From the NCBI GenBank assembly GCA_020137815.1, contig CM035353.1, positions 62,001 to 126,000 of the forward strand: DNA of 64,000 nt, written 5' to 3'. Position numbers and translations under genes: made by a program. The stretch is from Hormiphora californensis. Taxonomy: Eukaryota; Animalia; Ctenophora. The notes below the pieces were generated by a model. It searched no databases and was not told where the DNA came from. It was given only the letters and a program-made list of their open reading frames with translations. Below are positions 12,257 to 44,200 of this stretch, piece after piece (the stretch's first letter is position 1; every line of letters starts with the position of its first letter).

Positions 12257-22107
<9,851 letters not shown>

Positions 22108-22278
22108 AGATGTTTGTATAGCTGCAAAATGCGAAGAAAAGCTGGGGTAATGTCTGACTTCAATATTGCATATATGTGTGTGTATTGGAACTGTGCGGGT
22201 GTAGAACTCAAATGTATGGGAGCTGAATGTATACCATTGCTGCACTGTATAAACGTTGAATGTGTATAATACAAGGTG

Positions 22279-23828
22279 GGCCACGGATTGTTGGTCATGG
22301 TTAGCGAGGTGGTGCATCAAAACGGTGATAGTTGTGAGAATAAAAATTATGGGAGCACTCTGGATCAATTCCTTGGTAACTTTTTCCATAATTTTTTGTC
22401 AAAAATTCGAAAATTCATTTTTCATTCCTTCATTCATTTCTCGTTCATTCATGATGTGAGCATCCTAATTTTCCATCATTATGCTATTTTTCTTTGGCTT
22501 GAATTTATCTTTCCAATGAGCACCATGAAAATGAAATTGAAGCACCAGGACACTCAGCAGTTGAGAAAATGTTCATGCATGATTTTGACTCTTTTTGCGA
22601 CTTTCAAACAGCTGTATCACAGCTACCTTTCGTTCAATCTTCTTAAAACTTAAGGAAAACATTGGATAAGCAAAGATCTTTGCTCACAAGAAAAATCAAG
22701 GCCAAAGATCAAAGTTCATTTTTCATTTTTGTTAGTTCATTCCGTTCATTCAGGAACCAACATCCCTAAAGTGATGAAAAGGTTTAGGTTTTGTTTGGCC
22801 CATGTCCTGCAATGACAGAGAGGTGTAATAACGTGTTTCCGGGCTAGTTTGTGGGCGTCCATGTGATTATGATGATATCTGACACCTTTTCTGAGCCATG
22901 ATTAAAGGATTTTCTCAAATTCAAGCATGTAACTTGGTTTTTCTGCGATTAGTACCGTGCAGCAATGTTATGAGATCTCATAATACCTCAAAAATGATGA
23001 TTAGCTCAATGAAATGAGTTGATTTATGATGTAATTGTTCGTTTCGTTCAATTTGACATCGGTTTTAATCTTTTCAATCATAAATCAACTCATTTCATTG
23101 AGCTAATCATCATTTTTGAGGTGTTATGAGATCTCATAACATTGCTGCACGGTACTAATCGCAGAAAAACCAAGTTACATGCTTGAATTTGAGAAAATCC
23201 CTTAATCATGGCTCAGAAAAGGTGTCAGATATCATCATAATCACATGGACACCCACAAACTAGCCCGGAAACACGCTATTACACCTCTCTGTCATTGCAG
23301 GACATGGGCCAAACAAAACCCAAACCTTTTCATCACTTTAGGGATGTTGGTTCCTGAATGAACAGAATGAACTAACAAAAATTAAAAATGAACTTTGAAC
23401 TTTGACCTTGATATTTCTTGTGGGCAAAGATCTTTGCTTATCTAATGTTTTCCCAAAGTTTTAAGAAGATTGAACGAAAGGTAGCTGTGATATAGCTGTT
23501 TGAAAGTCGCAAAAAGAGCCAAAATCATGCATGAACATTTTCTCAACTGCTGAGTGACCTGGTGATTCAATTTTATTTTCATGGTGCTCATTGGAAAGAT
23601 AAATTCAAGCCAAAGAAAAATAGCATAATGATGGAAAATTAGGATGCTCACATCATGAATGAACGAGAAATGAATGAAGGAATGAAAAATGAATTTTCGA
23701 ATTTTTGACAAAAAATTATGGAAAAAGTTACCAAGGAATTGATCCAAAGTGCTCCCATAATTTTTATTCTCACAACTATCACCGTTTTGACGCACCACCT
23801 CGCTAACCATAACCAACAATCCGTGGCC
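22279..23828. mobile_element. 1.55-kb palindromic (foldback) element
   Basis: GGCCACGGATTGTTGG ... CCAACAATCCGTGGCC; ~755-bp arms and a spacer at ~23036-23076; mirror ORFs 22276+ and 23819-. No TSD recognised. Confidence 0.9.
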
Positions 23829-24139
23829 AGTCTGTTTTTTGTCTGCTAAATGTCTATCAAGATAATAAGTTTATCATCCATATTATGAATATAAAGCGAA
23901 TATACTCTAAAGAGAACCCAGTCTGCAGTCAATATAAATACTGTTTTTTTTATATTGAAAAGTTTGGTGCTTACAGCATACAGCATTGAAATTTTTGGTG
24001 CATTCTATTTACTATAGGTATTCTAATACACAATTATCGATTAATTTTATTCATTTCGTTTATTGGAAACAAATATTTCTGAGTTTAACTTGAATTTATT
24101 GTAACTTCGTTTATGTAATATCTTCGATTAATATCTGTA

Positions 24140-24398
24140 CAGTTGGACCCTTATTTTACCGAGACTCCAATTTACCGGGAGGATTTGTATTGTTCATACT
24201 ACAGCAACAGCACAAGGGAGGATAAACTTCCCCCGTTATTGGAAATTAATTGCATTTCACCCCGATATACCGGACACCCCGATTTACTTGAATCGCTTGA
24301 CACTCTGTGTCCGTGAAGAAAAGAACGTGTGAACATTTCAACGATTTACCGGGCAAAACCCGTTCCTACGATCATCCCGGTAAATCGGGGTCCGACTG
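24140..24398. mobile_element. CAGTCGGACCCCG-family MITE
   Basis: TA|CAGTTGGACCC ... GGGGTCCGACTG|TA. Confidence 0.8.
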
Positions 24399-24761
24399 TA
24401 TATGTATATGGTTTATTTAATGTAACTGAAGTGTGAGAGAAAGAGAGCACATCGTTTAATGTAAAAATGGTTTATTTAAGTGTAATATTTACGTTTGGTC
24501 GCGATGTGCCCAATATTTACGTATGAAAAGTGAGGGAAGATAAACATGTATACTCACTTTAATGTCTTAGAAAATTGAACCAACTCGTTTTATAGATGTT
24601 AATATTCATCAAACATACAAACTTGATTCACAAACCACTCGCATTCTCGGCCGCACTGCTTATACTTAGTCCCTTGGTCGAATCTCTTTGTTCCAACTCT
24701 TATCAAACTCAATACCGTGCAAACATTCAGCACCTCAATTTAAATGGGACATGGCCATTTC

Positions 24762-26017
24762 TCAAGAACCATCACGGAGGCCACTAGGTAGGGGGCCCTC
24801 CGACACCCCAGTTGTCCCATTCGCCATACTCGTATCAGTCATTTCGGGGACAAATCCTCCCTTTTTCCGGCTGGACTTGTGGCACAACATGGCAGCTAAC
24901 CTCAGCCCACCACTGTGGGAGAGAGGGTGAACCTTGGAGGAGTCATGTGGGTGCCGTAGGGCCACATTGGACCCCAGTTGTAGTGGCGGGGCGGTGGAAA
25001 GGGCCTGGATCTCAGAGAACCACTTAGCCCTCTTTCTCCAGGGAACGATTAGCAGAACCTTACATGTTGATTGTGCTATTTTCCTGGCCACCCTCATTAA
25101 CACCTGATCATTATCAAAGGGGGGAAAACAGTAGACAGTGTCCCAGTTATCCCAGGACACGGTAAAGGCATCCTGTTTAAAACTCATCGGGTCCTCTCTC
25201 TGACTAACAAACACGGCACATTTATAGCTGTGGTATGACGCAAACAAGTCCATATCGGGGGCCACCTTAAAGTGATCGCAGATCTTGTCATACAGTTTAG
25301 TCGGCATAACCCAGTCAGTGGTGTCAGGCATCTGGTGACTCTGTACCTCCGCGACCTTGTTACGGGGCCCGGTGTAATAGACGGCGGTGAGAGCGAGTTC
25401 ATAACGCTTCGCCACCTCCCATATCTTCAGCTTGAGAGTTCGCGTGACTGAGTTGGGGGTGGCCTGCACTGCTCCAGTCTTGCTCGGGTTCACTCTGTTG
25501 ATCAGGTTTACTGCTTCCTAGAAGAATAGAAGCAACCGTAGTATAATAATATTGTATATCGCGACACTAACAATCTCTACGGAACCCAATTCATATCAGT
25601 ATGATTTGCAAAAAGCCACAGCGTTTATACCTATAGATTATGATTGTCTAGATGAGACAACAACAACGGTTACCTGGTTGTCTAAATACAATGTAACATC
25701 AGTAGGGTTGTATTGCTCGTGCTTGTAGAAGGTTTTGAGAACAAAGTACACAGCCTTCAACTCCCGTTCTAGTGAGGATAACTTGCATTCTTTCTCCTCC
25801 CAATATCCCCGCACGATACGCCCTAGTAGGGAAATCATGTTGTTACTACCATGCCGACCCATTCATGACACTGTTAAAGAACTAATCGATTCTAGGGAGT
25901 TATCTCAGCACTTGTTGCAATGGATCCAAAGGTGTTATAGTTGTTACCGTTTGATAGATTTTCCCCGCCCCATCCGGAGTGACTTGCATCCGACACTAAC
26001 TCAACCTGATTTCCCAT
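24762..26017 (-). CDS. Intron-containing DIRS-type RNase H + DNA N6-adenine methyltransferase-like module
   Basis: Three exons join into VSDASHSGWGG..|..RGYWEEKE..SSLERELKAV..LYLDNQ|EAVNLINR..RNKVAE (DIRS RNase H), then DW..MDLFAS..DAFTVSW..VYCFPPF..LLIVPW..WF..HP..LRLAAM (DIRS MT domain). No stops; no RT, gag or tyrosine recombinase recognised nearby. Confidence 0.88.
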
Positions 26018-29000
26018 CTGAAATATAAACAAATTAACATTGTGAACTACTACTGAAGCATTGTACTTCATTGTCACCACCATTGATCCCTACTAACCCC
26101 CTTATACAACAAACACCCTACTAACCCCCTTATAAAACTAACCCCTGACTGATCCGTTATTTCGGTGCAGTATCGGTCGCGTGGCGCCAGGAAGATGCTC
26201 TCCATCTGGCTTGTCAGCGTCTCGTCTAGCTCCGGGCTTATATACTCAAGGGAGTCTGGTGCCTCAGGAACTTCATACGTTCCAGAGTCTGAGGGGTTGA
26301 ATTCGTAATATTATATTCATATTATACATGTCTGATCGCGCCGTAGGTTTGAGACACCCCCAGACAGTATACCGGTCTAGTATTGAGTTTAGGTATTATT
26401 TTGAAGAATAAATGTGTGATGAAATTATGCAAATCTCTATTGTCTTCACCTCGTTTCGCATTATTCGCCATCGCCGTGTATTCAGATTGGGGTGCAGGAA
26501 TAACGTTGTCATCAAACACTGCCTCAACTCTGTCCAGAATGTGCTACAATTGAGAGGGTGGGGGGGTAGTCAGTTTTAAGTTGTAGTTATAGGTAGATTG
26601 CGGGATCATGGATTCAGAGAAATAGCTGGTGATTGGAGTATATGATTGTTCGATACTTTAATGCGCAAATTCATCAATGTATTACCGCTCGTTTCCCATT
26701 CCGAGATTTGGGCGAGAAGATAATCTCAAGGGCGAAGACCACAGCGGCTAACAGCACTCCGGGAATACAGATGTAGAGGATCCCCAGGAGAGAGGCAAGC
26801 TGTAAACTATCTGCCTCCGCATCAAATCCACCCTCCTCGCAGTGCACTAATAGATATAGGGAGATATAATAGATATAAGGGAGATAGAGATCCATGTTTC
26901 AATTATTAAATGAGGGGGAGAGAGGTCTTCAACCCCTTACTCAACAAGATGACATAGTTCGGCCGAAGTCTTCTGATTCTTAACTGAATTTTAGTGCTTT
27001 GAAAGAAGGAATTCTGGAATCATAAACGTTTCTAGAAATGTATGGATACTTACCGTTAACATAGCTATCCCAGAAACCCTTGATCATTCCCTTCTCCTGC
27101 ATAATTAGCATCTCCCTATTGAAGTCTTCTATAAACGGTGACCCGATCTGATAGGCAAACGCGTACCTGTAGTAATAAAGTGGGTTGGTGACATAGACAC
27201 CTGGCGTCACCAATAAAATTGGTGGTTTCTTGCTTGTTCAATATATGCCTTTTATCATATGTACTCAGACCCATGATGTAACAAAAATATAAATGAATGC
27301 TCACCCGAAATCTACAAGAACGTCCCCAATAAGCTCCAATTCACAATTCTCGGATAGAATCTTCTCCAGAGGACCAACTCCATACATAAATATATAGCTT
27401 CCGATCTTCATTCGAGTTGTGGCTTCCTTTAGCGAACTTGTGGAGTTGGATCGGGCGTAAACTTTTCGCAGAAGAGCATCCTAGTGCGGTGGGAATGTAT
27501 CATTTATTAATTGATTAGTATAATCATGGAGTAATTTCAGTAATCATTCCTAATCATGTTATGATCAGTAATCATGGTTTGTCTATTATATATTACTTAC
27601 ATCGCTGTTCTGCAACAGGTTCTCCGTGATAGACCCCTCTATTGTACCAAAAGTGTAGTCGTCCTGGTTTAGAAGGTCCTCCGGTGAACTGATATCAGCT
27701 CCCTCATTTGACACTGAGATCAGATCGCATTTGTATAACATATGGCAATGAAATAATCTTCTACAATTTTAAACATATTTTCAAAATTCAAAAAGGTTAT
27801 GTTTATTGTTTTTCTTCTAAACATATAATTACCGGTAAGGAATGCGGCAAGGTTTGCAGTGTACATACTGACCATAACCAGGCAGATCATCCACCAAACG
27901 GTTAGAAGGAGTCTCGCGGACCAGTTCTTGGGGATACCATCGGCAGGGGCCACCGCCAGGAAGGAGCAGATTGACAACCATAGGGAATTGGGAGCGTTCA
28001 TTATGGCTGAAAGGAATGAAAATAATATTTATAGTTCATTTTTGAATCACTTAAAAGTTAATTTGCATTGCTCACCCATTTGATGCTTGAGTTCATTATC
28101 TTCTTCGAATGGGCACCATACGTCTCTGAAGCCATGTTTCAGAAGATTTGTGCATTTTGAACATCCACACAGTTTCGCCTTTACATTTACCCCACCGTAG
28201 TTTCCGTAGGGGCTGATTCGGTCAAAAGAAAAGAAGACAAGGAAAAAGAATATAATTCCACAGCCAATAGACGCCCTAAAAATCGTAGCGTTAGATAATC
28301 ATTGTAATTGACGTTATAAGGTTTACTTACCATACGCCGAAAGAGAAAGGCTTTAGAAAGAAGAAGAAATCATTAACAGAGACATCTTTTGTCGTAGCCA
28401 TCCTTACCCCTCCCGGGAGAATTGTGATCCCAAAGTTCACTGCCCTCTCTCGGCTGTGTGATATCCCGAATCCCACAATCCCAATGTCCATTCTCTGCAA
28501 AGATGGTAAACAATTGAGCTTGACCCTCTTTCCGTGCCCTCTGTCACGTAAAAGAGGCCTAGGTTAGAACAAAACAATGAGATATTTTATGTTTAGAATG
28601 ATTTATTTCACCTACTTTTTCGTTGATTTCTTTAATTAGCCCATTCCATTCTCCATTAACTTCATTTCCAAACTTTCCATCTTTAGGTTCAATGAACTCA
28701 TAATCAAAGTTAAGCTTTGATTGAAGTTGCCTGATAATATCGATACTAATTCCTGTGTAGCACCATTCCTTATTCTCCATCGCTGAAAAAATGTTCTTTT
28801 CACTTTACCATACCAGATTACCAATTAGCGGTGCTGGTATCACTAAGTGATTGGCCCTGCATGCGTAGGGCCCCCATCAGGGGTTCACACCCATGGCAAC
28901 CGCTCTTATAAAATCAAATCAATCAGATTCTCAATAATTAAAAGAAGACCTTTAGAAGTTGTCTAATATACCTGAGCAATTGTTGTATTTAATGGGTCCC

Positions 29001-31801
29001 CGGGTGTAGTTGTAAATGATAAAGGGAGGATCTTCCAGGACGCCAAGTTTTAGTTTCACCTCCGTCACACTCGGCTTGTCGGAGGGTGTATCAGGCAATG
29101 CATGGGTCCATATCGGGTCCAGGTTTATCTTTAGTCCCCCATCCTTCTTCCACTCTCCGATCTGCAACACAATAAAACATTCATACTATACACTGACTTG
29201 TTGAGCAAGGGGTTACTCAACAAATACCGACGATGAAGAAGTTTTATAAAATTTATTAAAATTTACCTTTCTGATTTCATCGGAAGCGTTGAGGTGCCTG
29301 TTGAAGTTGACAATGTCGTAACTCATCTTCCTTACTGATCTCTGAATGAGATGACAAAAGTATGATGAAAACGTTATCAGTCCAATTGTAATGTGACATG
29401 ATTATAAATACGTTATCAGTCAGCGATCAGGCATTCCAATAATTCAACCTCTGTATATATACCTGTTGAAACTGTTGATAAACTCGTTCACCAAGCGGCC
29501 ATTCCAGTTCTGTGGTCGAGCAGTTGCCAGGGTAGTTGGTTATCTGTTCACTGGAGAATGAGGGACTCCGATATACCGCATCTATTGCCCCCGCCAGGAA
29601 GTGAACCGACTCGTATACTAACACATCCACCGGCTGGAAATATACACATACTTCTAGTTCTTGCATGTGCACTGTGCAGTATCGTAAAGCAATTAATTTG
29701 AACGGAGGAGGGGCGAGGGCGTCAACGTTCATGTATTTAAAATATATGTGTATTTCAGAAACCGTAATGGTCAGATTACAGATACCGTATTCTCACTACA
29801 AGCACCCATGATAGGAAGAATGCAGGATAATACTATGGGAACATGCACAATATGCCGTACTAAACATATACCGTTAGGCGCTCATTGTTTTGCAGATACT
29901 CCTCCCTCAAATTGTTTACTTTCTCCGCGGGTATGGCAAGAGTTGGTGATAGTCCGACAAGTCCATCATAGTAGGTTTTAATTCGGCCTTCCCTTGTAAA
30001 CACATCTGTCTGAAAGTGTAATGCATACTCAATTAATAAAAGCTGCTGAAAATTGTTTCCTTTTGTTCATAATTACATAGTCCATGATAAAATCTAAAAG
30101 CCCGGATCAGTGGTTACAACATACAAGGGATTGAGTGATAGGAGTTGTCACTAGCCAAACATAAACACTGTCAATCATTCCGTTCTCGCTGGCGGCCTCT
30201 AGAACGACCTCAGCAAAGGCGGGTGGCATAAGCAGCACTGTCACTCTAGTGCTCTTTGATAACAGTTCGTCAATCCAACCTTTCGTCATAAAAGTTGTTC
30301 TGAAAAATGGTTTTGATGATTTTACCACTTTGAGTCGGCCATTATACCACATATGTATGTCCTAACGTTTGTGTACTATTGTTATCACATATGTTGGTCC
30401 AACATTGTTGGATTACTTTGTTGGATTACATTGGATTGATAAGTAAATTACCCAGTTCTTCCCTTGAGTTCCTTTACTAGTGTTGTATTGAAGGTATATC
30501 GAATACGAATGTCAGACAGCAGATCTATTTCTCGTTTCTTTAGTTCCGATTTTAAAAACTTTCGCATTGTTAAACCTGAAAATTGAGGTGGTACTTTTCA
30601 GTGTTCTGAATTCTTTTGGAGGCCTTTTATTCGTTTTTTTACCAAGGCAGAAATTTGGTTATAATATAGACTAAGATGAGATCGTGGAAGATAATTCATT
30701 GTTGCTTTTCTATGATTTAAACTTACCATAGGCGTCGTCTGTGTAAACGATAGATACGCGATCCCAATGGAAATGTTTAATCAAATCTGCCATCGCAACT
30801 GCTTGTACCTAAGAGAATTATGAAACATGATAAATGGGGTGGGGGGGGGGCAACATTGCATTGGCCTAAATATAGACACTTCATAAGTTCATGTCAATAA
30901 ACATATTAAATAAAACGATTCCTTTCTCTATAGATTTTAGATTTACCTGATTAGAAGGACTGAGCCTGTAAAGAGATGCAGTCCAGCTGCCATACTCGAT
31001 ATAAGGGTCCGCCGCAGTCGGCGCTATTAACGGCATCTTTATCTGCAATAAAGTTGAATAGATATGAATCAAATCGAAGGTTCGTGATTGAGCTCTGAGC
31101 GACGCAGAAGGTGGAAAAGGTACAGTCTGTATAGTACTCTTTTGAAACAGATGTTTCGTGATTCTAATTACTTACTAGGCTGGTGAGATAAGCGCATTCT
31201 CGGACGTGGCTCGAGTCAAAGGGACCAACTACTCCGGATATCTTACTTTCACGTAACACATTACATACTGGGGATACGATATAATTGTAACGATATTATA
31301 CTCTAGTTAAAACACTATACAGTCGAGAATAAAATACAATTCTGTAGGAGCTAATTGCGGGAGCTTACGTTGTGTTGTTGTTTTGGCCGGACTACTCTGG
31401 GCTTCCAGTCCGGTACTTATAGCAACTCCTTTTAAAGTTGTCTCCGGTAATATCTATAGCATGTATTATAGAAGTTAAAACAGAATGTAATAAGAGCTTT
31501 TTGCAAGAACCATTTAATTGAGCTAAACCATATTAATTGATTTATTGTTACCGTGTCTTGCTTGTTGACTTCATTAATGGCAATTCTCATTGCCCTCTCA
31601 GAATTCGAGGCGATATTCGAGTGAAGTAAAGCTGAAAAATAATAATCAGTTAGCCATTAATAATTAATGTTTGAAGTATGTTTCATGAAACGCTCAACAC
31701 TAATTAAATGACCCTCAAAATGAAGTCTCACCTATAGTCAAGTCATCTGTAGCATGGGTTAGTCCGAGAAGACTTAAGAGAAGTAGGCGGGCAACAAACA
31801 T
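24762..31801 (-). CDS. Ionotropic glutamate receptor subunit A (epsilon-like), with predicted C-terminal DIRS-derived RNase H + methyltransferase extension
   Basis: Minus-strand GT-AG exons, all phases compatible: 31801-31732 (signal peptide MFVARLLLLSLLGLTHA), 31631-31552, 31453-31369, 31267-31176, 31042-30947, 30808-30727, 30575-30452, 30299-30125, 30009-29872, 29633-29463, 29341-29267 (ATD); 29161-28972, 28782-28616, 28494-28331 (S1, DGKFG..WNGLI, FLKPFS); 28275-28076 (M1); 28006-27833 (M2-M3, MYTANLAAFLT); 27713-27601, 27480-27305, 27166-27054 (S2); 26846-26686 (M4); then 26543-26450, 26288-26143, 26017-25948, 25822-25674, 25517-24762. The iGluR core (882 codons) is secure; the tail linkage is predicted. 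Confidence 0.9.
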
Positions 31802-32234
31802 TTGACACACTACTAGAAATATTGATGGATCTTTGTAAAAAACCAGGCAGTAATTCAAAACAAACTATATAGCAACAGTGCACAAATATTCCTTTTTTTG
31901 GCGTGATTTTGAATGATAATAAAATACTCTTTTATCAATTATAATCAACTTCAAATATACAGCGACACTCAGTTGTACTTGTACCATACTACACATATCG
32001 TTTGACGCACACACACACACCCACAGGTGAAGTTAAGATAGGCTGTAGCTGTAATTGGACTAATGAAGGAGCTGCCAGTGCGGGGCCTGCAGCATGCAGC
32101 TGTAGAATGGGGAGCAGGAAGCAGCTCCCGTGTCTCTAGCCACCACCCTGTCTATGTGAGGTTGTGTGTGTGTGTGTGTGTGCGTACCATACCAGTGCTT
32201 GTCGTATAATAGTATATCAGTCGGGTATATCACT
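31802..32234. promoter_or_regulatory. Putative bidirectional promoter and 5' UTRs of the two iGluR genes
   Basis: Only 433 bp separate the divergent ATGs at 31801 (-) and 32235 (+). Inferred from position; no core motif identified. Confidence 0.55.
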
Positions 32235-35200
32235 ATGAAGTCGCTACGTTTGTTACTGTTACATTTCTTAGCAATTGTAATATCGGGGCAGCAGGATCTC
32301 AAATCTATTAGAATAGGTCAGTCAATGCATGGCTTCAATCTTATATTGTTTCCCTTCTTCTTGGTGATCCAGACCTCTCGACAGTCCCCCCACAGCACCT
32401 CCATCCACCCACCGCCCCCACCCCACCACACAGCACCTCCACCCACCCACCGCCCCCACCCCACCACACAGCACCTCCACCCACCCACCGCCCCCACCCC
32501 ACCACACAGCACCTCCACCCACCCACCGCCCCACCACACCACACAGCACCTCCACCCACACACCGCCCCCACCCCACCACACAGCACCTCCACCCACCCA
32601 CCGCCCCACCACACCACACAGCACCTCCACCCACCCACCGCCCCCACACACCACACAGCACCTCCACCCACCCACCGCCCCACCACACCACACAGCACCT
32701 CCACCCACCCACCGCCCCCACCACACCACACAGCACCTCCACCCACCCACCGCCCCCACCCCACCACACAGCACCTCCACCCACCCACCGCCCCCACCCC
32801 ACCACACAGCACCTCCACCCACCCACCGCCCCCACCCCACCACACAGCACCTCCACCCACCCACCGCCCCCACCCACCACACAGCACCTCCACCCACCCA
32901 CCGCCCCCACCCACCACACAGCACCTCCACCCACCCACCGCCCCCACCCCACCACACAGCACCTCCACCCACCCACCGCCCCCACCCCACCACACAGCAC
33001 CTCCACCCACCGCCCCCACCCCACCACACAGCACCTCCACCCACCCACCGCCCCCACCACACCACACAGCACCTCCACCCACCCACCGCCCCCACCACAC
33101 AGCACCTCCACCCACCCACCGCCCCTACCACACCACACAGCACCTCCACCCACCCACCGCCCCCACCCCACCACACAGCACCTCCACCCACCCACCGCCC
33201 CCACCACACCACACAGCACCTCCACCCACCCACCGCCCCCACCCCTTATCCAGAGTACCCAGCGGGTACCCACTACGCTCTGCTTCTTCTTCCCTTTACT
33301 AAAGGCCTCCTCCAGGGCTTTTAATTGATTTAGTACCATTATATCGTTATTTATCTTGTTAACTCCTCTGCAGGGCTACTTTATACGGATGAGAAGAGTA
33401 ACACACCGATAGCATTTAATCAGGCTATCAACGAAGTCAACTCAGATACAGAGGTATCATATGCAGCCAATCAGAAGCCTTCATTTCAAAATCCAGGCCT
33501 CTGATTGGCTCGCAGTCAGACCCATATCATGCAGTCCATATTTTATAGCTGTTTTTTCTATTGTATAACTAAGTTATGAATCCGGCTAAGGAATTAGAAA
33601 TGAATTATGGATTAATTATCTAGAGTTTAAATCATATTTTAGAACAAAATTCCAGATTTCAAATGTTTTGTATGTTTTGTATATTCTAGTGGTTACCTGG
33701 TGTAGTATTGGACGCAGTAACGAAGAACATCGGAAGTGACAATGACAACCCCGCACAAGCCGTTCATCGAAGTGAGTTTGAGACAGATCAGATCGGTAAT
33801 ACTAAGTATTAGTATATTTGGTTTCATATTATCATAATAACGTATGATCATTTATCACATATGTTTCACAGTGTGCAGATTGCTGGAGCAGGATGATTTG
33901 ATGGCGGTTATTGGTCCCTTTTCCTCATCTCATGTGAAATCATGTTCCTACACAACACACCGGGTATGTTTAGAGATTCAAATATTGTAGATGACAGATT
34001 GGCGTCGACTGAATTGTTATAAGTACAGTTGTACGTGTGACTAGCTTAGGATTGTAATGATGAAGGATTGATGAAATGTGACCGTATTTTCAGATGGATC
34101 TACCCCTAGTAGCCCCAACAGCCACAGACCCCGATCTAACTAACCCGTTCTGGAGTGACAGTCTTTTAAAACTTAGTCCTAGCAATACCGTGAGTTTTGA
34201 TGTAGTTACCCACGTTACCTGGGTTACCAATGTTACCTCTACTATCACTGGTTACCGAGGTAACCTGCTACTACTACTGCACGGAGATCAATATGAATTT
34301 CAATTTCAGTTCCAAGCAGACGCCATGGTAGACGTTGTGGTTAAATTTGGGTGGCGGAGAGTTTCCCTTGTGTTCACTAGCGAGCCCTATGGTAATTCGA
34401 TAATTCTGCTGTATTTGTATGGTTCTAGGTCGATATGCTGTTATCGTGAATATACCTATGTGATATCTTAATTGAAGCATTTGGAACATAAATGAACATT
34501 ATCACATTTAAAAGATTGGATAATTTAAGTTTCTTTTACTCTTTTAGGTGTAACTCTCGGCTGAGGAAATGAGGAACAAAATTAAAGGGGAAGGGAGTAA
34601 AAGTTATCACGGAGTTGGAAATAGGGCTTGATTTGAACCCCTCCACCAAAACTACTAAGTAAGTGTTTCAAATTATAAATTAACGAATTGAAAGAATTGT
34701 ATATCTATTGAATTGAGTAAGCTTCAAATGATAGATTCATGAATGAATTGTATATCTATTGATAGAGGCGTGGCTGGCTGTTATACCATTATTAGTGAAC
34801 AGGATACAGTTAGCGATGAAAATTAGTTTTCAGATTTTGTAGAGAATGCTCACCTGGATCAAATAAAGATATTTTTAGGCATATGTAATTCAATAATTCT
34901 CAAATTAGTCAGAGCTGGTTAGCTGGATAGTGGATATATAGCAGAATATGATCATCATTTGCCTTTAGAGGGTGGATCAATCAGCTCAAGAATGCGGTCA
35001 CCAGGGTAACGCTCCTCCTGACTCACTCATCTGTGGGAAATGAAGTGCTGAAAGCAGCCAGGAAACACGACATGATCGGACGAGAGTATGTGTGGGTCGC
35101 TTCAACCGCTATGGCTGATGCTACGGTAAGATAATTATCATATACAATCTAAGGGAGAAATAAAGGGTAGAGGAGCTTGTTTCATTTTGACTTCTCTCCA

Positions 35201-38200
35201 TGAATCTCCACTTTCCAGGACCTTGCGTTTTCACCTGATGGAAATCTAAAGCCTGAGTATGATGGGTTGCTTGGAGTGTCGGCCTACCTAGATATCACTG
35301 GCGGTTTCTACAAGCGCCTCAGGAGGGCTTATACTGATGCTAATGTAACAAGAATATCGGTACGTATCAATTCCAATATGGAGGTTAGGATTACTTCGCC
35401 GCGGAGGTTCCGTGAACAATTGATTCTCAAAAATATATTCTTGATAATAAATTATTCACGGAACTTAATATATTAGCTCCTGCAATACAATCTTCCCCTC
35501 AATTGCTACCATATCTTGATCAACTATACAGGTGTCCATCTCACCAACTCCCCCCCCCCCTCTAGCCTGCCGATGCCCTTGTTTACGATGGAGTCTACCT
35601 ATTGGCACACGGTTTGGATAGGGTGATAAAATCACGCGATGGTAACCTGGAAATGATAGACAACTTTGCTGGTGACTGTTACTCAGACTCCTTGCCTAAA
35701 GAGTGGACTGACTTAGTTAACTCACTTAAAATCAATTTCATGGTATAACATACAACTTATTATCATTCTTTTTTCAGAAAAAAACACTCCCTTTTTTCAC
35801 TCCTCCCCGCGCTAACATTTAAAATATCATACTCAGTCCCTTACATTGCTTGTAATTTGATGTAACTCTCCTATAGTCGCCCTACACCGGTATTACGGGA
35901 TCAAGAAGCATGTGGCCAGATGGGAACCCTGACGGAGACAAGATCCGATACAATATAGTCAGCTTCTCCAATAACGCCGTGGAACCGGTATGACGCTATT
36001 TTCTGGTTTACGAACTATAATATCTTTAGTGAAGCTTTGATTTGATTTTTTGATTTGGAAAAGGATAAAAATCGATATATTTATAAAGACAATATCCCGG
36101 TTGGCTCCTATTGACGGAGTGTCAATATCGACGGAGCGCTTACACCTCAAAATACTCTAAAAATTCACACACAGACAGTTCTCACACACTACAGACAAAC
36201 AGACTAATACAGTATATTTTTAATAGAATAAACAAAATCTAATATGGCTGCTATAATAGATAATATATTGATTATTTCCCCCTCCCTAGCCAACCCCCCA
36301 AAATTCTTGTTTGTAAATGTCTTGTAATCAGTTATGTGATTAGATTCGCGACTGTGCGATTGCTTGTTGTATAGTTTCAACTCTTCAACACCACACCAAA
36401 GAAATAAATAATTTGAAGTCCATGAGATAGGAGAGATTGATCTAAAGTTTAGAAAGTAGGTGAAGTCAATAGCACAGCCGCGAATTTACGAATTTGGAAT
36501 GTTATTCCAGAGATAATCTTTGAGCTTGGCCACAAAGGCATCATGAGAATCTAGGCATCGTAGGTCATGCGGAAGGTTATTCCATTCCACATGGATACGG
36601 TAAAAATAACTATGTTTAAAAGCGTCAATATTAGGGTTATGTGTGCAAATGATGTCTGTTTGGTCCCGGTTTGTCTGTTGTCTAGTTGTACGCCTGTCGT
36701 GTCTGTCAGGGATGTATTTGTGAAGGAACATTGGAAGTTTTAGGGATGAAGATCCGTAGAATATCTTATGAAACAGTTTTAAGTCATTATAAAGGAACCT
36801 TTCGGTAATAGGAAGAATCTTTCTTTGTTTAAGTTTACTGACATACGTTTTCCAATCATAGCTGAGCTCCATTTCATTATTTATCCATTTTAATGCACGT
36901 TTTTGGAGCTTTTCGAACTTTTCAATACTAGAGGCTGAAACTGGTCGCCATATCTGGCTGCAGTGTTCAAACAACGAACTAACAAGACTGACATAAAGTG
37001 TTCTCCTCTTTAGAGGGGAATCAACCAGAGCACTAGTTCTCTTGACTAGGCCTAACCTCTGAGACGTTTTAGAAATTATCATGTTTTGGTGTTCTAGAGG
37101 CGATAATTTTCTATTGGTGATCACCCCCAGGTCAGTTTCATTTGTACATTGTTGAATCTCACTACTTCCTAAGTAATATTTTAGGTTAACAGGCTTATGC
37201 TTCAAGGTACATCTAAGAAGTTTACATTTATTAGGGTGGAACTTCATTTTATTTTTCACACTCCACTCAATCAATCTATCAATATCAGGCTGGAGACTAT
37301 CATTTTCATTCTTAATCGTCCTCCAGATTTTTAGATCATCTGCATATAGCTTTATATTGGTTTCTCCTTCATCCCCAATGGCCTCAACTATATCATTTAT
37401 AAATAGAACAAAAAGGAATGGACCGAGGATGGATCCTTGAGGGACTCCACTCTTAACATTAGACCATTCCGAGAATTCACCATCTAATGCTACTCTCTGT
37501 CGACGTCCAGATAAGTACGCTTTAAGAAATTGCAACATTTTACCGTTTATGTTATACTGGACTTTAAGTTTTTCAAGTATGACATCGTGTGATACGCTGT
37601 CAAAAGCCTTTTGAAAATCAAAATATATAATATCTGTTTGCAAGTGTTGGTTTAAATTTATTGCTAGCTCACAGTTAAACTCGATCAGTTGGGTCGTACA
37701 TGACTTCAGTGGTACGAACCCATGCTGATGAGGTGTAACTTTCTCCAGACAAGCCCTATACAGGCGCTCTCTAACCAACTTTTCGAAGACCTTCATAATT
37801 AGACACGTAAGAGAAATCGGTCTATAATTCTCTACATTAGACTTATCTCCTTTTTTGTGGACTGGCACAACATTTGCATTTTTCCACTCAGTTGGAATAG
37901 ACCCTTCATCAAAAACTTTGTTAAAAATTAATACTAGTGGATATGCCAATGATTTGTGACATTTTTTCAAAACTATACCGTCTATATTATCTGGGCCAGT
38001 GGCCTTGGATGCATCTAATTTTCTTAATATATCTACAACTTCATCAAAGTGAAAAGTTTCGTTGTTAAAATCATTATCGTGGTTTCTATCAAAATCAATT
38101 GGTGTGCTATACGTACTGGCTTGTGTGAACTGTTTACAAAAAAAATCATTAAACATTTTGCATTTTTGTTGACTACTTTTTTCAGAGTTATCCTCGTAAT

Positions 38201-41200
38201 GAACTATATCAGGGACTCTAGTGCTGCTAGTTTTTGATTTCACATGTTTAAAAAACTTTTTGGAAATTGCAGCTGTAGAGGCAGACTCATCAATGGAGGA
38301 GAGTTCTAGAAAGTGTGTTTCTTTCTCCCTTGACGCTTTTCTGTACTCTGCCTCCATACAAGTAAATACATTTTTTAGGGAAACATCATTTGGAAACTTC
38401 AGAGAAGCTTTTCTAGAATTATCCATTGACCTTTTTAACTGTCTCAACTCATCATCGTACCAGGGTGGTTGAGATCCTATTTTTACATTAACTAATGGTA
38501 CATGGTGTCTTAGGGTAATATCTAATTTTGATTTAAATTTCTGAAGAGATTGCTCGGCCCTGAGGTGTTTGAATTCCTTAGTCCAGTCATACCGAATCAG
38601 TCCCTCATTAATCGCATCCCAATCAGCTTTCTTGTAAGAAAACTTTTTAGCCGTCTTAAACTTGGGTCTTATCTTTTTGATTTGCACCTCACATTTAATA
38701 GTGAAGTGGTCAGATTTGACTAAACAATTTTCTTCTACCGATACATTGGAAAAACACGAACTATTATTTGTGAGAATTAGATCTAATACATTTCCATCCC
38801 TGTGTGTTGGTGCGTTTATTAACGAACTCATACCCAGAGATGTAAAAAGGTGAGCAAAGCCTTCGTGTATACTATTGCTCGATACTGGGTCATCCCAATC
38901 TTTAACCGAACTTAGATTGAGATCCCCGATGATTGCTAGGTTTTTATATTTTCTAGATAGGCGTGTGTAGTACCGCTCAGTTTCTTCAAGACAATCTGAC
39001 CCCGAGTAGTCATACCTGTAGAATGTTGAGATACATATCGGGGTCAGGTTTTTTGACTTGAGCAGTATGGTGACAATAGGCAGATTTACCTTGTCCTTTA
39101 CCTGATCAACTTCAATACCCATGTTATTCTTACATAGAATCATAACTCCTCCCCCACCCTTTTTATCATACATTTCCATGTCCCTTTTAGTTCTATCTTT
39201 TCTGTATATTGTATAGAACTGATCGGACACTAATTCCCCATCATTGACATGCTTGTTCAACCACGTTTCATTTAATACTACAATTTCTGGCTCATAAGTA
39301 AACAAGTATGCTCGGAGATCAGAGAGTTTAGATACTTGAAACTGGGGCTGATCACCACTAATTGATTGCATATTTATGAGACCATTAACGTTGCAGTACA
39401 CCACACTAATTTTTGTTTTTGGTTCAGTAGGCCCAGGATTTACAATACTGGGCTGGTGGATAACAATAAGTGCTTTTGCTAGACTTGAAAGAAAGATTAA
39501 TAGTACGACTAGTCGACACCTAACTATGATTTTGGAACAGGTGTTCCCTATTTTCCCCATACTTTTGAATATCACCAGGGTTAACACACAATTAGCATAC
39601 CAAATGTAATGCTGGTTGATACTCTTACCGACTTCTTCTCGGCCTGTTTCCATACATAGTTCTCTACAGGACAGAGAGGAAGTACATCTGGACATAGAGC
39701 CTAAAAGAATAAGTATTAGTATACTGTAACTTAGGTAGAGAATCAAATGAAATGGTGATATTGATGATGTTTGTCTGTACTGTCGGTCAAGGGTTTTGTT
39801 AGTAAACATTTTTCTTTTTCCACCCCTCCCCCCTGCAAACCTCCCAATAGTTTGTCTGTACTGTTCAGCACTTATCATTGTGGGGGTTTTGGATTTTGGT
39901 TTCGGCACTAAGGGTTCACGGAGGGTCTGTTGGTTGGGGTAATAAAACAACTTCTCCCCCCAAACATATATATTATCAATGCAGCAAAATCAGCAATCAG
40001 CGTAAAACTTCGTTATAAATCAGGTCAGTTAAGACCGAGTAACCATATTTATTCAAATGCACACCATCCCTACAATAAAGTGATGAGTTGAAAAACAAAT
40101 CACGCGTTAGGAAATCAGCCATCCAACTCACAAAACTGCAGTTCATGAGTTGGGACACACAATTTACAATTTTGTTGTACATGGTAACATTAGAGACCGT
40201 ATATGAGAAGTCTCCTCTCAGGGGAAGGACATGTGTAATCACTATCTCCGGGTCCCCATACAACCGTCTAATCTGCCTCACTAGGTGGCATAGTGCCCCT
40301 TGGAGTCGGTTCTTCGTTGCGCTGTTCTCACAGAAGTTCTTATCAAACCTAATATCGTTCGTACCATAGCAGATAACAACCTTCTCAAAGTGTGCCTCAG
40401 GGTGGCTCTGGTGGTACCTGGACAGCTCTTCAAACGCTGTAGTACCCTTCCATTTCGAATGGGGCTTCACAATCCTTGCACCCGACACAGAGATATTCTC
40501 AAGCCCCCGGATCTCAGGTACCCATTTGGACAGGCTCGTGCCCAAGAGCAGAGTAGTGGGGCTCCTAGGGTTGACGGCATGTCTCAAAGAAGGGACCACT
40601 CCAGAAGGGGTAGGAAGTAGGGGTGGTCTAACGGAGGGTACCGGCACGTTCGCCACTGGGGGAGGAGGAGGAGGATCCGGTTGGTAACCATCCCCATTAG
40701 GAGGAGGAGGGGAATGCTGGACTCCTATTGTTGCCCTCGATGGTGGGGAGGGCAGTCTCCGTGGGCTAGGTGGTGGTGGTGGTGGTACCAGATCTGTTGA
40801 GGGGAGCTGTGGGGTTGCTCTTCTGTAGTGATGCTTTCATTTGCAACTATGTATATGTTGTTTCCAACATCAATAAGCGATACTTTTTCTTGGAAAACCT
40901 GACCAGTGGCCTCTATACTTACATATCTCCTCCACAGGTTGGTCAGTGGCAAAAGGAGAGTAGGGTGACGCTTAACAAGGAAATTACCTGGTATGAAGGT
41001 GAAGATGTCACCCCCATTGACTCTCCAAACCTTGTCAATGTTACTCTTAAACTTGGACTACTGGAAGACAAACCGTTCATCATTTACAATTACACAAACT
41101 ACAACTATTCCAAATGTGAAGGTATATGGCCCTAGTAAACACAAAAAGTTTTTATAGCAATTGTGATGTAAATATTTGACATTGAACTGTTTCAGATATG

Positions 41201-44200
41201 CCGAATAAGGACTGGTGTTACACGGGGGTCAGCATTGATATTGTTAGGGACCTCCAGAAGAAGCTAAAGTTCAACTATGAGTTCTTTGAGTCGCCTGACG
41301 GGAAGTTTGGTAGTGTTAATAACGGCCAGTGGAATGGAATTATCAAAGAAATTAATGAGAAGGTAAATAACCTTTCAAAAAACTTTGAAGAAGAAGCCAA
41401 ATTAACTTTTAATAACCCTCCAAAAAACTCCCTAGAGGGTTGATATTGGTGTTGTTGGATTTGGTACATCGCACAGTCGAGAGAAGGCGGTTGATTTTGG
41501 TATTTCCTTCCTTCCTGGTGGAGTGAGGATGGCGACAAGAATGACTGCCGTGGAGACCAATCCTTTCTTTTTCCTGAAACCATTCTCAAACACTGTATGG
41601 TAAGCAATTGACTATTTTATATTCATACTCCTAGCCTCTCTCCTTCCCTCTTCCCAAAAAGAGAGGGGACGTCGTCCCCGGTTTCCTAGTTGGAATTAAC
41701 CCATCTTTATAATGAATGTTTTTACACATTACAGGATAGCTATTTTGGTTGGTATCCTGTTCTTCTTTGTGGTAATTCACGCCCTTGACTGGTACAGCCC
41801 TTACGGATATGCAGGTTAGTTTGAAATTGAGTTATTTGATAAAAGATGGCAGTTGAAACTATCATTATGGAGACTAGCAAAACTGGGGCGATCGTACCGA
41901 TCGCAAATCGAGGGGTCTGTTTCTATGTTTTTCTCTCTGCCTGTCTGCTATATGCTATGTGATGTGATCCCTCTCTTTTTCTTTCTTTCTCTCCCTTTTA
42001 TATATGTGATGTGACCCCTCAGGCCTCAAGTAGTTCTCAACACGTGTGATACGTGATACCTACGAATCACGTCGTCACACTGACGGATCACATCGTCTCA
42101 CTGACGGATCACATCGTCACACTGACGGATCACGTCGTCACATTGACGATAGGGTGTCACATTTCCGTGCAAATTTGCATTAGATATAGTTAGATATATT
42201 ACTTGATTTGTAATCTTCCTAAATTTCAGGAAGTATCAGATTCAAATGTAGCCAGTGCCAGTGTGAAAAATGCCAGGAGTTGACAAGACGGGGAGGGTTC
42301 AGAGAGAAACACTGTCCTTTTGAGGAAGACCACGAGCTTAAACACCGAATGGGTAAACTCATACTTTCCTGGGTCTAGGACTGAATGTCGAACAGACAAT
42401 AAATCACATCGGTTCGAAAGCTCGAAAATGTGGCCCTAACCCTAACCCGAACGATAGCCCTAAGCATATTAAGAAAACAGTACACAGTAAACTTTTCGTA
42501 TTTGGCCTAGCGGCCAAATTATCGAGCTTACATCCTAGCTCGGTGATTTATCGTCCGTTCGACTTTTAGTACGGACCCCCTTATATTATATCCTAATATT
42601 ACAATATTACAAAAAAGAGATAATACATTTACAGGGACGATGAGCAAGGCGAATGCGTTGTGGCTTTCCGTTTGCTCCTTCCTGACCTATGCCCCTGCTG
42701 ACGCGGTCCCCAAGAACTGGTCAGCCCGGATCATGATCACTATTTGGTGGATGGTGTGTCTTGTGTTGGTCAGTATGTACACTGCAAACCTTGCCGCCTT
42801 CCTAACAGGTTAGGGGGACCACATACAGCACCGGTGCGAACTCCAGAACGTCGCACCACATACTGTCGGTGGAAACTTCAGTACAGTGAGTGTATGTGGT
42901 GCCTCTTACTGAACAATCAATAAAAAACCTTCAAAACAAGCTAAAAACACGTAATTTTTTGTGAAATATCTTCCTCTCACTAATACCGAACTCTCTCTAC
43001 CTCCTTTTCTCTCTCTTGTTATGTTTATCTCCACTTATCTCTCTTTTATCTTTCCCGATTGCAGCACATATTTTCTCGATATGTTGGATAATCTCGCCCT
43101 TGTTCTAGGTGTGGCCCTTTCTGTCGTAGTGAGAGTGCGTGCGCCTCTTATTGGTTGCTGTGGTGTGGGTGTGTGTGTGTATTGTGAGATGCAGGTCTGT
43201 CATTGGCTAGTGCGCGCACGTGACCCCCACGTGACCTTTCAGTTCAGTACGAAGAGCACATACAGCACCGTACTGATCTTTTCTGAGCTAAGCTCACGTG
43301 AGATTGTGTACTGATAGTCCCACCGATATTTATCAGTAAGAGGCACCACATACGGCAGTGCGTACTGGAGTTTGCACCGAAAGTGCTGTATGTGCTAGTG
43401 AGAACTGAAGTTAGAGGCACCACATAAAGTCGGATTTTTTGAAGTTGTCACCCCAAAATGACCGCGCATGTGAAATTTATCAATTTTGACGCGCACACCA
43501 CACGTTAACATGTGATGTGACGCGCAAAAACATTCCGCGCACGACAAGGGGGGTGACAACTTCAAAAAATCCGACTTTACGGCGGTGCGAATTTCAGTAC
43601 AGTGCTGTATGTGGTCCCCCTTAGAGATCCCCATGGTAATATATCATAGAGTTTAGCTACAGATCTCCACCCCCCAACCCCACCACGGGCTGTGATTTTT
43701 GCTTGGTCCTTGAAGCGCCGTGATTGTTGCTTGGTCCTTCATGAAGGCGTGATTGTCAGGCTCATGCCCATAAACGCGGCACTCACGTGTGATCCATATT
43801 TGCATTCTGCACGTTTCAGTTCGGAAGATGACCGTGGACATCAATAGCATCGGGGACCTGCTTGACCAGAACGAATATAGTTTTGGAACCGTGGAGGGCA
43901 CTGTCACGGAGAATCTCATTCGATATGGAAGTGTAAGTGAAGTGTTTTATTTTGTTTTTAGATTTGGTTCTCATTTTCCTTAGCCCTGATCATTGTAAAC
44001 CCGATTCCTTTTGGTGTCTGAGTCGTTAGCTCACTTTGAGCTGAAACTTTGTGTACAATACTAAATTTATTTACGAATATTTATGAATGTTACTTGTTTC
44101 TAGAGCGAGGAAATGCAGAACGTTGCAAAGCGAATGAATTCCACAAACAGTTTTTCTGAGGCAGTTGATCGGATGAGATCGAGAAAATATATTTTCATGT

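Follow-up and report, generated by a model that had tools for sequence, protein, structure and literature searches.

Does an RNase H-methyltransferase module found in the genome of the ctenophore Hormiphora californensis belong to a mobile element or to its host, and does it stand alone or form part of a neighbouring receptor gene? This question is raised by a 64-kb stretch of that genome (hereafter called the window), the minus strand of which encodes an RNase H domain directly followed by a methyltransferase (MT) domain, both of them lying downstream of the exons of a predicted ionotropic glutamate receptor (iGluR). The initial annotation, made from the DNA letters of the window, had described the module as an old domesticated host sequence derived from a retroelement and had left its fusion with the receptor open. 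As judged from sequence comparisons, the domestication of an RNase H-MT module of DIRS type is almost certain, and the module is very probably fused to the receptor rather than a free-standing gene.

Gene model of the receptor and its tail

Using spliced alignment, we predicted an iGluR gene at 31801-24762 (-), with 25 exons and 1,286 codons devoid of internal stops, in which the RNase H-MT module occupies exons 23-25 (Table 1). The fused gene has 24 GT-AG introns of 55-238 nt. The exon model was built by aligning two proteins, P0169 and P0170, each against the window. Both alignments gave one exon chain and differed only in their N-terminal reach and in the acceptor of exon 23, for which an alternative in-frame site 12 nt downstream preserves the frame.

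P0169 is the 1,308-residue Mnemiopsis leidyi gene model KAL5252227.1, and P0170 is an uninterrupted frame of 1,262 residues on a 4,759-base ENA contig. Both have the domain order amino-terminal domain (ATD)-S1-M1-M3-S2-M4-linker-RNase H-MT. The P0170 contig is most simply read as a spliced transcript, because its 3,789 coding nucleotides fit into 4,759 bases, whereas the same residues cover ~6.8 kb in the window. Together with the spliced 25-exon model, these two proteins answer in the affirmative the question of the receptor fusion that had been left open, and we infer that the fused form is expressed in this species. The JGI contig L001 encodes S2-M4-linker-RNase H-MT without introns. The query used to collect longer relatives was an older partial model, P0160, with which two proteins were returned among 1,062 candidates; P0160 itself was discarded as independent support because it is an older model of the gene of P0169. 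As a hypothetical protein, the sequence already exists among public gene models, apparently without comment.

The two introns that the initial annotation had placed in the RNase H-coding region correspond to introns 23 and 24 of our model, with the same coordinates and GT-AG sites, and the second of them does split DNQ from EAV. The frame is intact, as had been proposed: joining 26017-25948, 25822-25674 and 25517-24762 yields 324 codons plus a stop, without any internal stop. Left unspliced, intron 23 would bring in four in-frame stops, and intron 24 three. Both introns are richer in AT than the exons, and their splice scores are like those of the receptor's own introns. With a splice-site matrix trained on 19 receptor introns, and ranks calculated among all GT or AG sites of the window, the donors of introns 23 and 24 fall within the top 4.7% and 1.5%, respectively, and their acceptors within the top 7.9% and 1.8%. 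The SDAS, ERE, LDN, NKVAE and FPPF motifs were all located where the annotation had reported them.

The receptor part displays an ATD, S1 and S2, M1-M4, the SMYTANLAAF motif and a cysteine-rich M1-M2 loop, the latter being described for ctenophore receptors (PMC6307864). Both this loop and the 69-75% identity with M. leidyi in S1, M1-M3 and S2 point to a ctenophore gene. Its epsilon-subfamily label rests on the description given in the same paper. The ligand-binding Arg is kept (SHSR), and the acidic position is occupied by Gly in the window, in P0169, in P0170 and in a neighbouring paralog (see below). This Gly is encoded in exon 18 (27480-27305), in the S2 motif YIF.YG.GP, and both GluK4 and the 4zdm receptor have Glu at this position. 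Since Gly stands for the ligand-binding Glu, the ligand of the receptor is uncertain, and receptors of this group may respond to a different ligand or be accessory subunits.

Table 1. Coordinates of the predicted fused gene, numbered along the 64-kb window
Feature	Position	Strand	Description
Exons 1-20	26686..31801	-	Receptor residues 1-882: N-terminal leader, ATD, S1, M1-M3 with cysteine-rich loop, S2, M4
Intron 20	26544..26685	-	Phase 0; splice linking the receptor to the tail
Exon 21	26450..26543	-	Linker; VFDD motif common to P0169 and P0170
Exon 22	26143..26288	-	Linker with YE[VI]P and SL.Y[IV]SP motifs
Exon 23	25948..26017	-	Start of RNase H, first Asp (SDAS)
Intron 23	25823..25947	-	GT-AG, 125 nt, phase 1
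Exon 24	25674..25822	-	RNase H: Glu at catalytic position (ERE), third acid (LDN)
Intron 24	25518..25673	-	GT-AG, 156 nt, phase 0, between DNQ and EAV
Exon 25, first part	25332..25517	-	End of RNase H; fourth acid position is Glu (NKVAE)
Exon 25, MT part	24879..25331	-	Predicted DIRS-type, PCIF1-like adenine MT fold; DLFAS kept; motif IV is FPPF
Exon 25, C-terminal tail and stop	24762..24878	-	ATTAAA at 24563

Origin and evolution of the tail

All 155 tblastn matches obtained with 153 DIRS-like proteins fall within 24700-26100, and none lies elsewhere in the window. The best relatives outside the family formed by the window's module and its closest homologues are DIRS-type proteins with the order reverse transcriptase (RT)-RNase H-MT, at ~27-37% identity, and the matches from the ESM Atlas, taken as a lead only, are exclusively DIRS-like clusters (0.79-0.87). 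On the strength of its sequence, the RNase H-MT module is of DIRS1 ancestry. Of the columns conserved in DIRS proteins, 12 of 20 in the RNase H and 21 of 29 in the MT are kept in all five family sequences compared. The YxDD motif was counted in 43 of the 147 DIRS rows.

The initial annotation had recognized no RT, gag, recombinase or terminal repeats. The claim stands for RT, as none of the 153 DIRS-like proteins gave a tblastn match upstream of the RNase H in the window, where the exons are those of the receptor and the linker, and also for the repeats, as no repeat pair flanks the module within 20000-33000. As to recombinase and gag, the 16 neighbouring or overlapping frames of at least 70 codons all lacked Pfam matches, recombinase families included, and no query was aimed at recombinase or gag. 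The frames that overlap the module are broken by stops. No relative was found in the viral contigs searched.

In a FastTree tree of 101 rows, the eight family members cluster as a single clade (support 1.0, stem 0.84), 54 shorter rows of the 155 having been dropped; an interim IQ-TREE tree of 38 rows has the FastTree topology, without support values. A distance of 2.6 substitutions per site separates the window from the nearest DIRS rows, with which it shares 33-37% identity. Between the window and P0169 or P0170, identity amounts to 69-75% in S1, M1-M3 and S2, 44-46% in the ATD, 34-38% in the linker, 44% in the RNase H and 46-51% in the MT. Differences at four-fold sites reach 0.74-0.79, which is about saturation, as against 0.31-0.37 at second codon positions, in all three pairs formed by the window, L001 and a further family contig, L002, and purifying selection on the RNase H-MT tail is supported. 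The comparison with DIRS proteins that the annotation had called for thus gave a single clade on a long stem, and this clade, the purifying selection, the lack of RT in the window and the differing intron positions all agree with an old domesticated host sequence.

A single copy, as anticipated by the annotation, is not to be expected. One RNase H-MT copy is present in the 64-kb window. The receptor part of L001 is 52-55% identical to its counterparts in the window, P0169 and P0170, while these three are 64-79% identical to one another across that span, so that at least two receptor paralog lineages carry the tail.

Family members also differ in their introns, with at least three different states. 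P0011 and P0012 have uninterrupted RNase H-MT frames, and their clusters include contigs of 13-327 kb. L002 is not interrupted at the site of the window's intron 24, and has a GT-AG interruption (58-152) slightly downstream, at another position of the RNase H. P0160 lacks blocks of P0169 whose edges coincide with introns 14, 18 and 24 of the window or lie near its intron 22; because one block edge matches intron 24, this intron is likely common to M. leidyi. Conservation of intron positions in related species, proposed earlier as a check, is thus probable for intron 24 in M. leidyi, while this intron is absent from L002 and positions differ among the family. The simplest reading is that the introns were gained after capture of the module.

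A second glutamate receptor gene, at 33325-45273 (+), is arranged head to head with the fused gene. The channel cores of the two are 55-59% identical and several of their intron positions are in common; no RNase H or MT match was found 3' of this paralog. One of its introns harbours a long interspersed nuclear element (LINE) at 36486-40836 (-), which looks intact as judged by eye, with an endonuclease-RT-like frame of 1,167 codons and an upstream frame of 279 codons. This LINE was rejected as the source of the module, being a non-LTR element matched by none of the DIRS queries. Between the two receptor starts, a GC-skewed tandem array of ~38-nt units (32350-33250) overlaps the 5' region of the paralog. 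On the other side, ~930 nt beyond the stop of the fused gene and wholly downstream of the module, lies an inverted repeat (22279-23828) with 752-nt arms that are 97% complementary and a 46-nt loop, of which no second copy occurs in the window.

Domain properties and competing explanations

The structure prediction suggested by the initial annotation was carried out on two relatives and returned, for P0012, an RNase H fold followed by a PCIF1-like MT fold. The model of P0012, based on a 120-row alignment, comprises two domains (pLDDT 86, pTM 0.81) and a C-terminal tail with pLDDT <50. Its residues 2-128 resemble RNase H1, with Z 16.9 and an rmsd of 2.4 over 121 residues, and the best methyltransferase match of residues 128-301 is CAPAM/PCIF1 (6irx; Z 12.2, rmsd 2.8 over 148). 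Human CAPAM was also ranked first by Foldseek with an MT-only model of P0161. The last exon of the window's gene matches Pfam Dam (PF05869) with an E value of 1.4e-7, above the curated cut-off.

RNase H1 works with four carboxylates, DEDD (PMC9719913, PMC3185654). The first three, D-E-D, are kept in all six family sequences that cover them, and the set is incomplete in the family, as the fourth position is Glu in two of the eight rows (the window and P0002) and Asn in the other six, compared with Asp in 144 of 145 DIRS rows. In the five sequences compared, the fourth Asp and the Asn that precedes the catalytic Glu by three residues are changed in every case and a late Asn in four, and the pocket residues D10, E44 and D71 are invariant. 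The D134N variant of Escherichia coli RNase HI is reported to keep most of its activity.

Motif IV of the MT starts with Phe and reads F-P-P-x in 8/8 family rows. This departs from D/N-P-P-F/W/Y, the catalytic motif, mutation of whose first residue inactivates METTL16 (PMC8287941). The initial annotation had remarked that FPPF differs from the canonical (D/N)PP(Y/F), leaving MT activity unproven. Phe also starts the motif in 145 of 147 DIRS rows, and FPPF, inherited from the element, is the DIRS norm (122 of 147 rows), for which reason we rejected its interpretation as decay after capture. No methylation is expected because Phe replaces the Asn or Asp of active N6-adenine enzymes, and in all likelihood the tail performs no methyl transfer. 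The cofactor-side motif D-L/M-F-A-S/T is retained, and the MT pocket residues D163, S178 and D182 are invariant in 5/5 sequences. The MTs of DIRS1 elements have been described as probably derived from PCIF1, likely inactive and possibly interacting with transcripts (Iyer et al., PMC4738411), and the role of the DIRS methyltransferase domain has been stated to be unknown (PMC3266345).

We tentatively favour a reading, rated just short of evenly balanced, in which the tail is a non-methylating module that binds nucleic acid or a cofactor, rather than a working nuclease or a pure scaffold. A DIRS1-like element would have landed behind the M4 exon of an ancestral receptor gene, and the existing phase-0 donor after M4 would have come to be joined, by way of the linker, to the 3' region of pol. 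Loss of RT, gag, recombinase and terminal repeats would have followed, as would duplication of the fused gene and the independent gain of introns in separate lineages. Given the topology of iGluRs after M4, the tail would reside on the cytoplasmic side of the channel. The MT fold, with its retained cofactor-side motif and Phe at the catalytic start, would not methylate. The RNase H, with three metal ligands kept and the fourth Asp and two element-invariant Asn residues changed, would bind metal and RNA or a hybrid duplex, and its cutting activity would be weak or nil. The tail would tether RNA at the receptor, or report there the occupancy by RNA or by S-adenosylmethionine (SAM) or S-adenosylhomocysteine (SAH). 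A more far-reaching proposal, which we regard as doubtful, is that this ctenophore receptor subfamily might consist of channel-enzymes or sensors, in which the tail would couple gating or localization to RNA cleavage, RNA binding or SAM, and splicing would toggle the tail.

Several observations weigh against a binding tail on an expressed fusion. The net charges of the window's two domains are only +2 and +2, and the structure models are those of relatives, not of the window's own spliced protein. Invariance across the five sequences compared extends to 28% of the RNase H columns and to 6 of the 15 acidic ones, so that the three kept acids are modest evidence. P0169 is a predicted model, and the mRNA status of P0170 is deduced from its compact coding span. 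The three linking donors rank lower (within the top 11-27% of GT sites) than the donors of the RNase H introns, and L001 has an in-frame TAG in its linker. Finally, the receptor part groups the window with P0169 and P0170, whereas the tail places it outside the P0169/P0170 and L001 groups, a conflict that could stem from faster evolution or from tail exchange.

The TAG of L001 lies just before YEVP, close to where the window has its phase-1 intron 21, within a 9-nt stretch (414-422) that opens with a donor-like GT (rank 7 of 115); this stretch might serve as a tandem donor for a tail-less isoform, reflect an error, or mark a dead allele. In the window, read-through of intron 20 leads to VIH-stop (TGA 26676-26674), then to ATTAAA at 26662. 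A short, tail-less isoform may arise by alternative 3' processing, and a pair of short and long isoforms similar to that of LAP2alpha is plausible. In intron 22, two 28-nt tandem copies at 26088-26143 repeat the GGG-GTTAG donor motif, resulting in three candidate donors.

The stop and the ATTAAA just beyond the M4 exon, the weakness of the linking donors and the stop in the L001 linker could also mean that the receptor ends at VIH-TGA (26674) and that the RNase H-MT module is a host gene of its own, with ATG 26017, the beginning of exon 23, as its start. However, P0170 is one uninterrupted frame and P0169 is modelled as fused, and the two linker exons retain both the frame and conserved motifs, YE[VI]P and SL.Y[IV]SP being present in 5/5 aligned linkers. 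The ATG immediately follows a strong acceptor (top 1.7%), and in the spliced alignment an internal exon begins with it; moreover, the neighbouring tail-less paralog has a GT at the same codon as the donor of intron 20, after KRM. We therefore consider a separate gene very improbable. That the module is a DIRS copy still mobile or only lately dead, or an artefact of assembly, adjoining the receptor would be harder still to credit, given the presence of three spliceosomal introns within and ahead of the RNase H, the lack of RT and repeats, the distance to the nearest DIRS relatives and the same fusion in other organisms.

If the fusion is accepted, its RNase H might be a working nuclease that cleaves structured RNA, or the RNA of hybrids, either at the membrane or once proteolysis has released the tail. 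The D-E-D triad has been kept despite saturated synonymous sites, the fourth position is taken without exception by Glu or Asn, either of which can ligate metal or form hydrogen bonds, and the fold predicted for P0012 is intact. Nevertheless, RNase H1 uses the full DEDD set (PMC9719913, PMC3185654), the DIRS-conserved RNase H columns are only partly kept and Asn/Asp sites are changed among them, and the plasma membrane would offer no obvious hybrid substrate, which makes nuclease function unlikely. The tail might otherwise be kept as a protein scaffold, folded but with neither a nucleic acid nor a cofactor as ligand, that serves in trafficking, in assembly or in the binding of partners. Its degree of conservation matches that of the ATD, which is also an assembly domain, many of its invariant positions are Trp, Pro, Gly or Phe, its net charge is near neutral in the window, P0169 and P0170, and Gly in place of the ligand-binding Glu would fit an accessory subunit. 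This explanation appears rather unlikely in view of the invariance of the polar pocket residues of both domains, and also of the basic character of the domains of L001-type paralogs (+4 to +9).

Comparison with known systems

In the literature searched, which left one key ctenophore receptor paper outside its coverage, we found no account of a receptor fused to an RNase H-MT pair, and no host protein derived from the RNase H-MT part of DIRS pol, let alone one fused to an ion channel. The word 'methyltransferase' is absent from the main text of each of PMC6307864, PMC12226733 and bioRxiv 10.64898/2026.08.09.743775. Exonization of DIRS sequences is a known type of event, and what was not found in that literature is an RNase H-MT pair on a ligand-gated channel. 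The known DIRS-derived host proteins come from gag (LAP2alpha and ZNF451; PMC5753468, PMC4495291) or from the recombinase region (ALOG).

A DIRS MT copy kept by its host on an expressible receptor would make the function of this domain testable. A receptor subunit built from a transposon would also bear on the discussion of how the nervous systems of ctenophores were put together, and the tail offers dated intron gains in a formerly intron-free sequence.

The window's module shares with the pol proteins of DIRS1-like elements an RNase H directly followed by the MT, an order documented in PMC3266345, and the DAS..GWG, DLFAS, DAF, FPPF and HP motifs. It differs from them in having spliceosomal introns, a receptor fusion and a changed fourth Asp, with no RT or terminal repeats detected. 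As in LAP2alpha (TMPO) and ZNF451, a DIRS1-like sequence would have been exonized into a host gene to give a hybrid protein (PMC4495291, PMC5753468); in those two cases, the original isoform has been kept through alternative splicing. LAP2alpha and ZNF451 are, however, gag-derived, nuclear and mammalian, whereas the window's gene combines the RNase H-MT part of pol with an ion channel and has gained introns. With the ctenophore epsilon iGluRs ML032222a and PbiGluR3, it has in common the ATD-S1-M1-M3-S2-M4 order, SMYTANLAAF and the cysteine-rich loop (PMC6307864). In contrast, ~410 residues follow M4 in the window, as compared with 12-117 in 24 of the 27 ctenophore receptors listed in that paper and 222, 251 and 287 in the others, the longest of these tails being that of ML00441a (GluE15). 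Gly in place of the ligand-binding acidic residue also sets the window's receptor apart.

PCIF1/CAPAM, the cap-specific m6Am methyltransferase, is the best fold match of the MT, with a weak sequence match of DLFAS to ECFAS (E 0.57). Unlike this enzyme, the tail has neither a WW nor a helical cap-binding domain, and it has FPP-x for NPPF. TRPM2, TRPM6 and TRPM7 belong to channel and enzyme families unrelated to those of the fused gene, and they are not known to be transposon-derived. In these channels too, an enzyme-derived domain is carried on the cytoplasmic tail of a tetrameric channel, and in some of them it serves only to bind a ligand.
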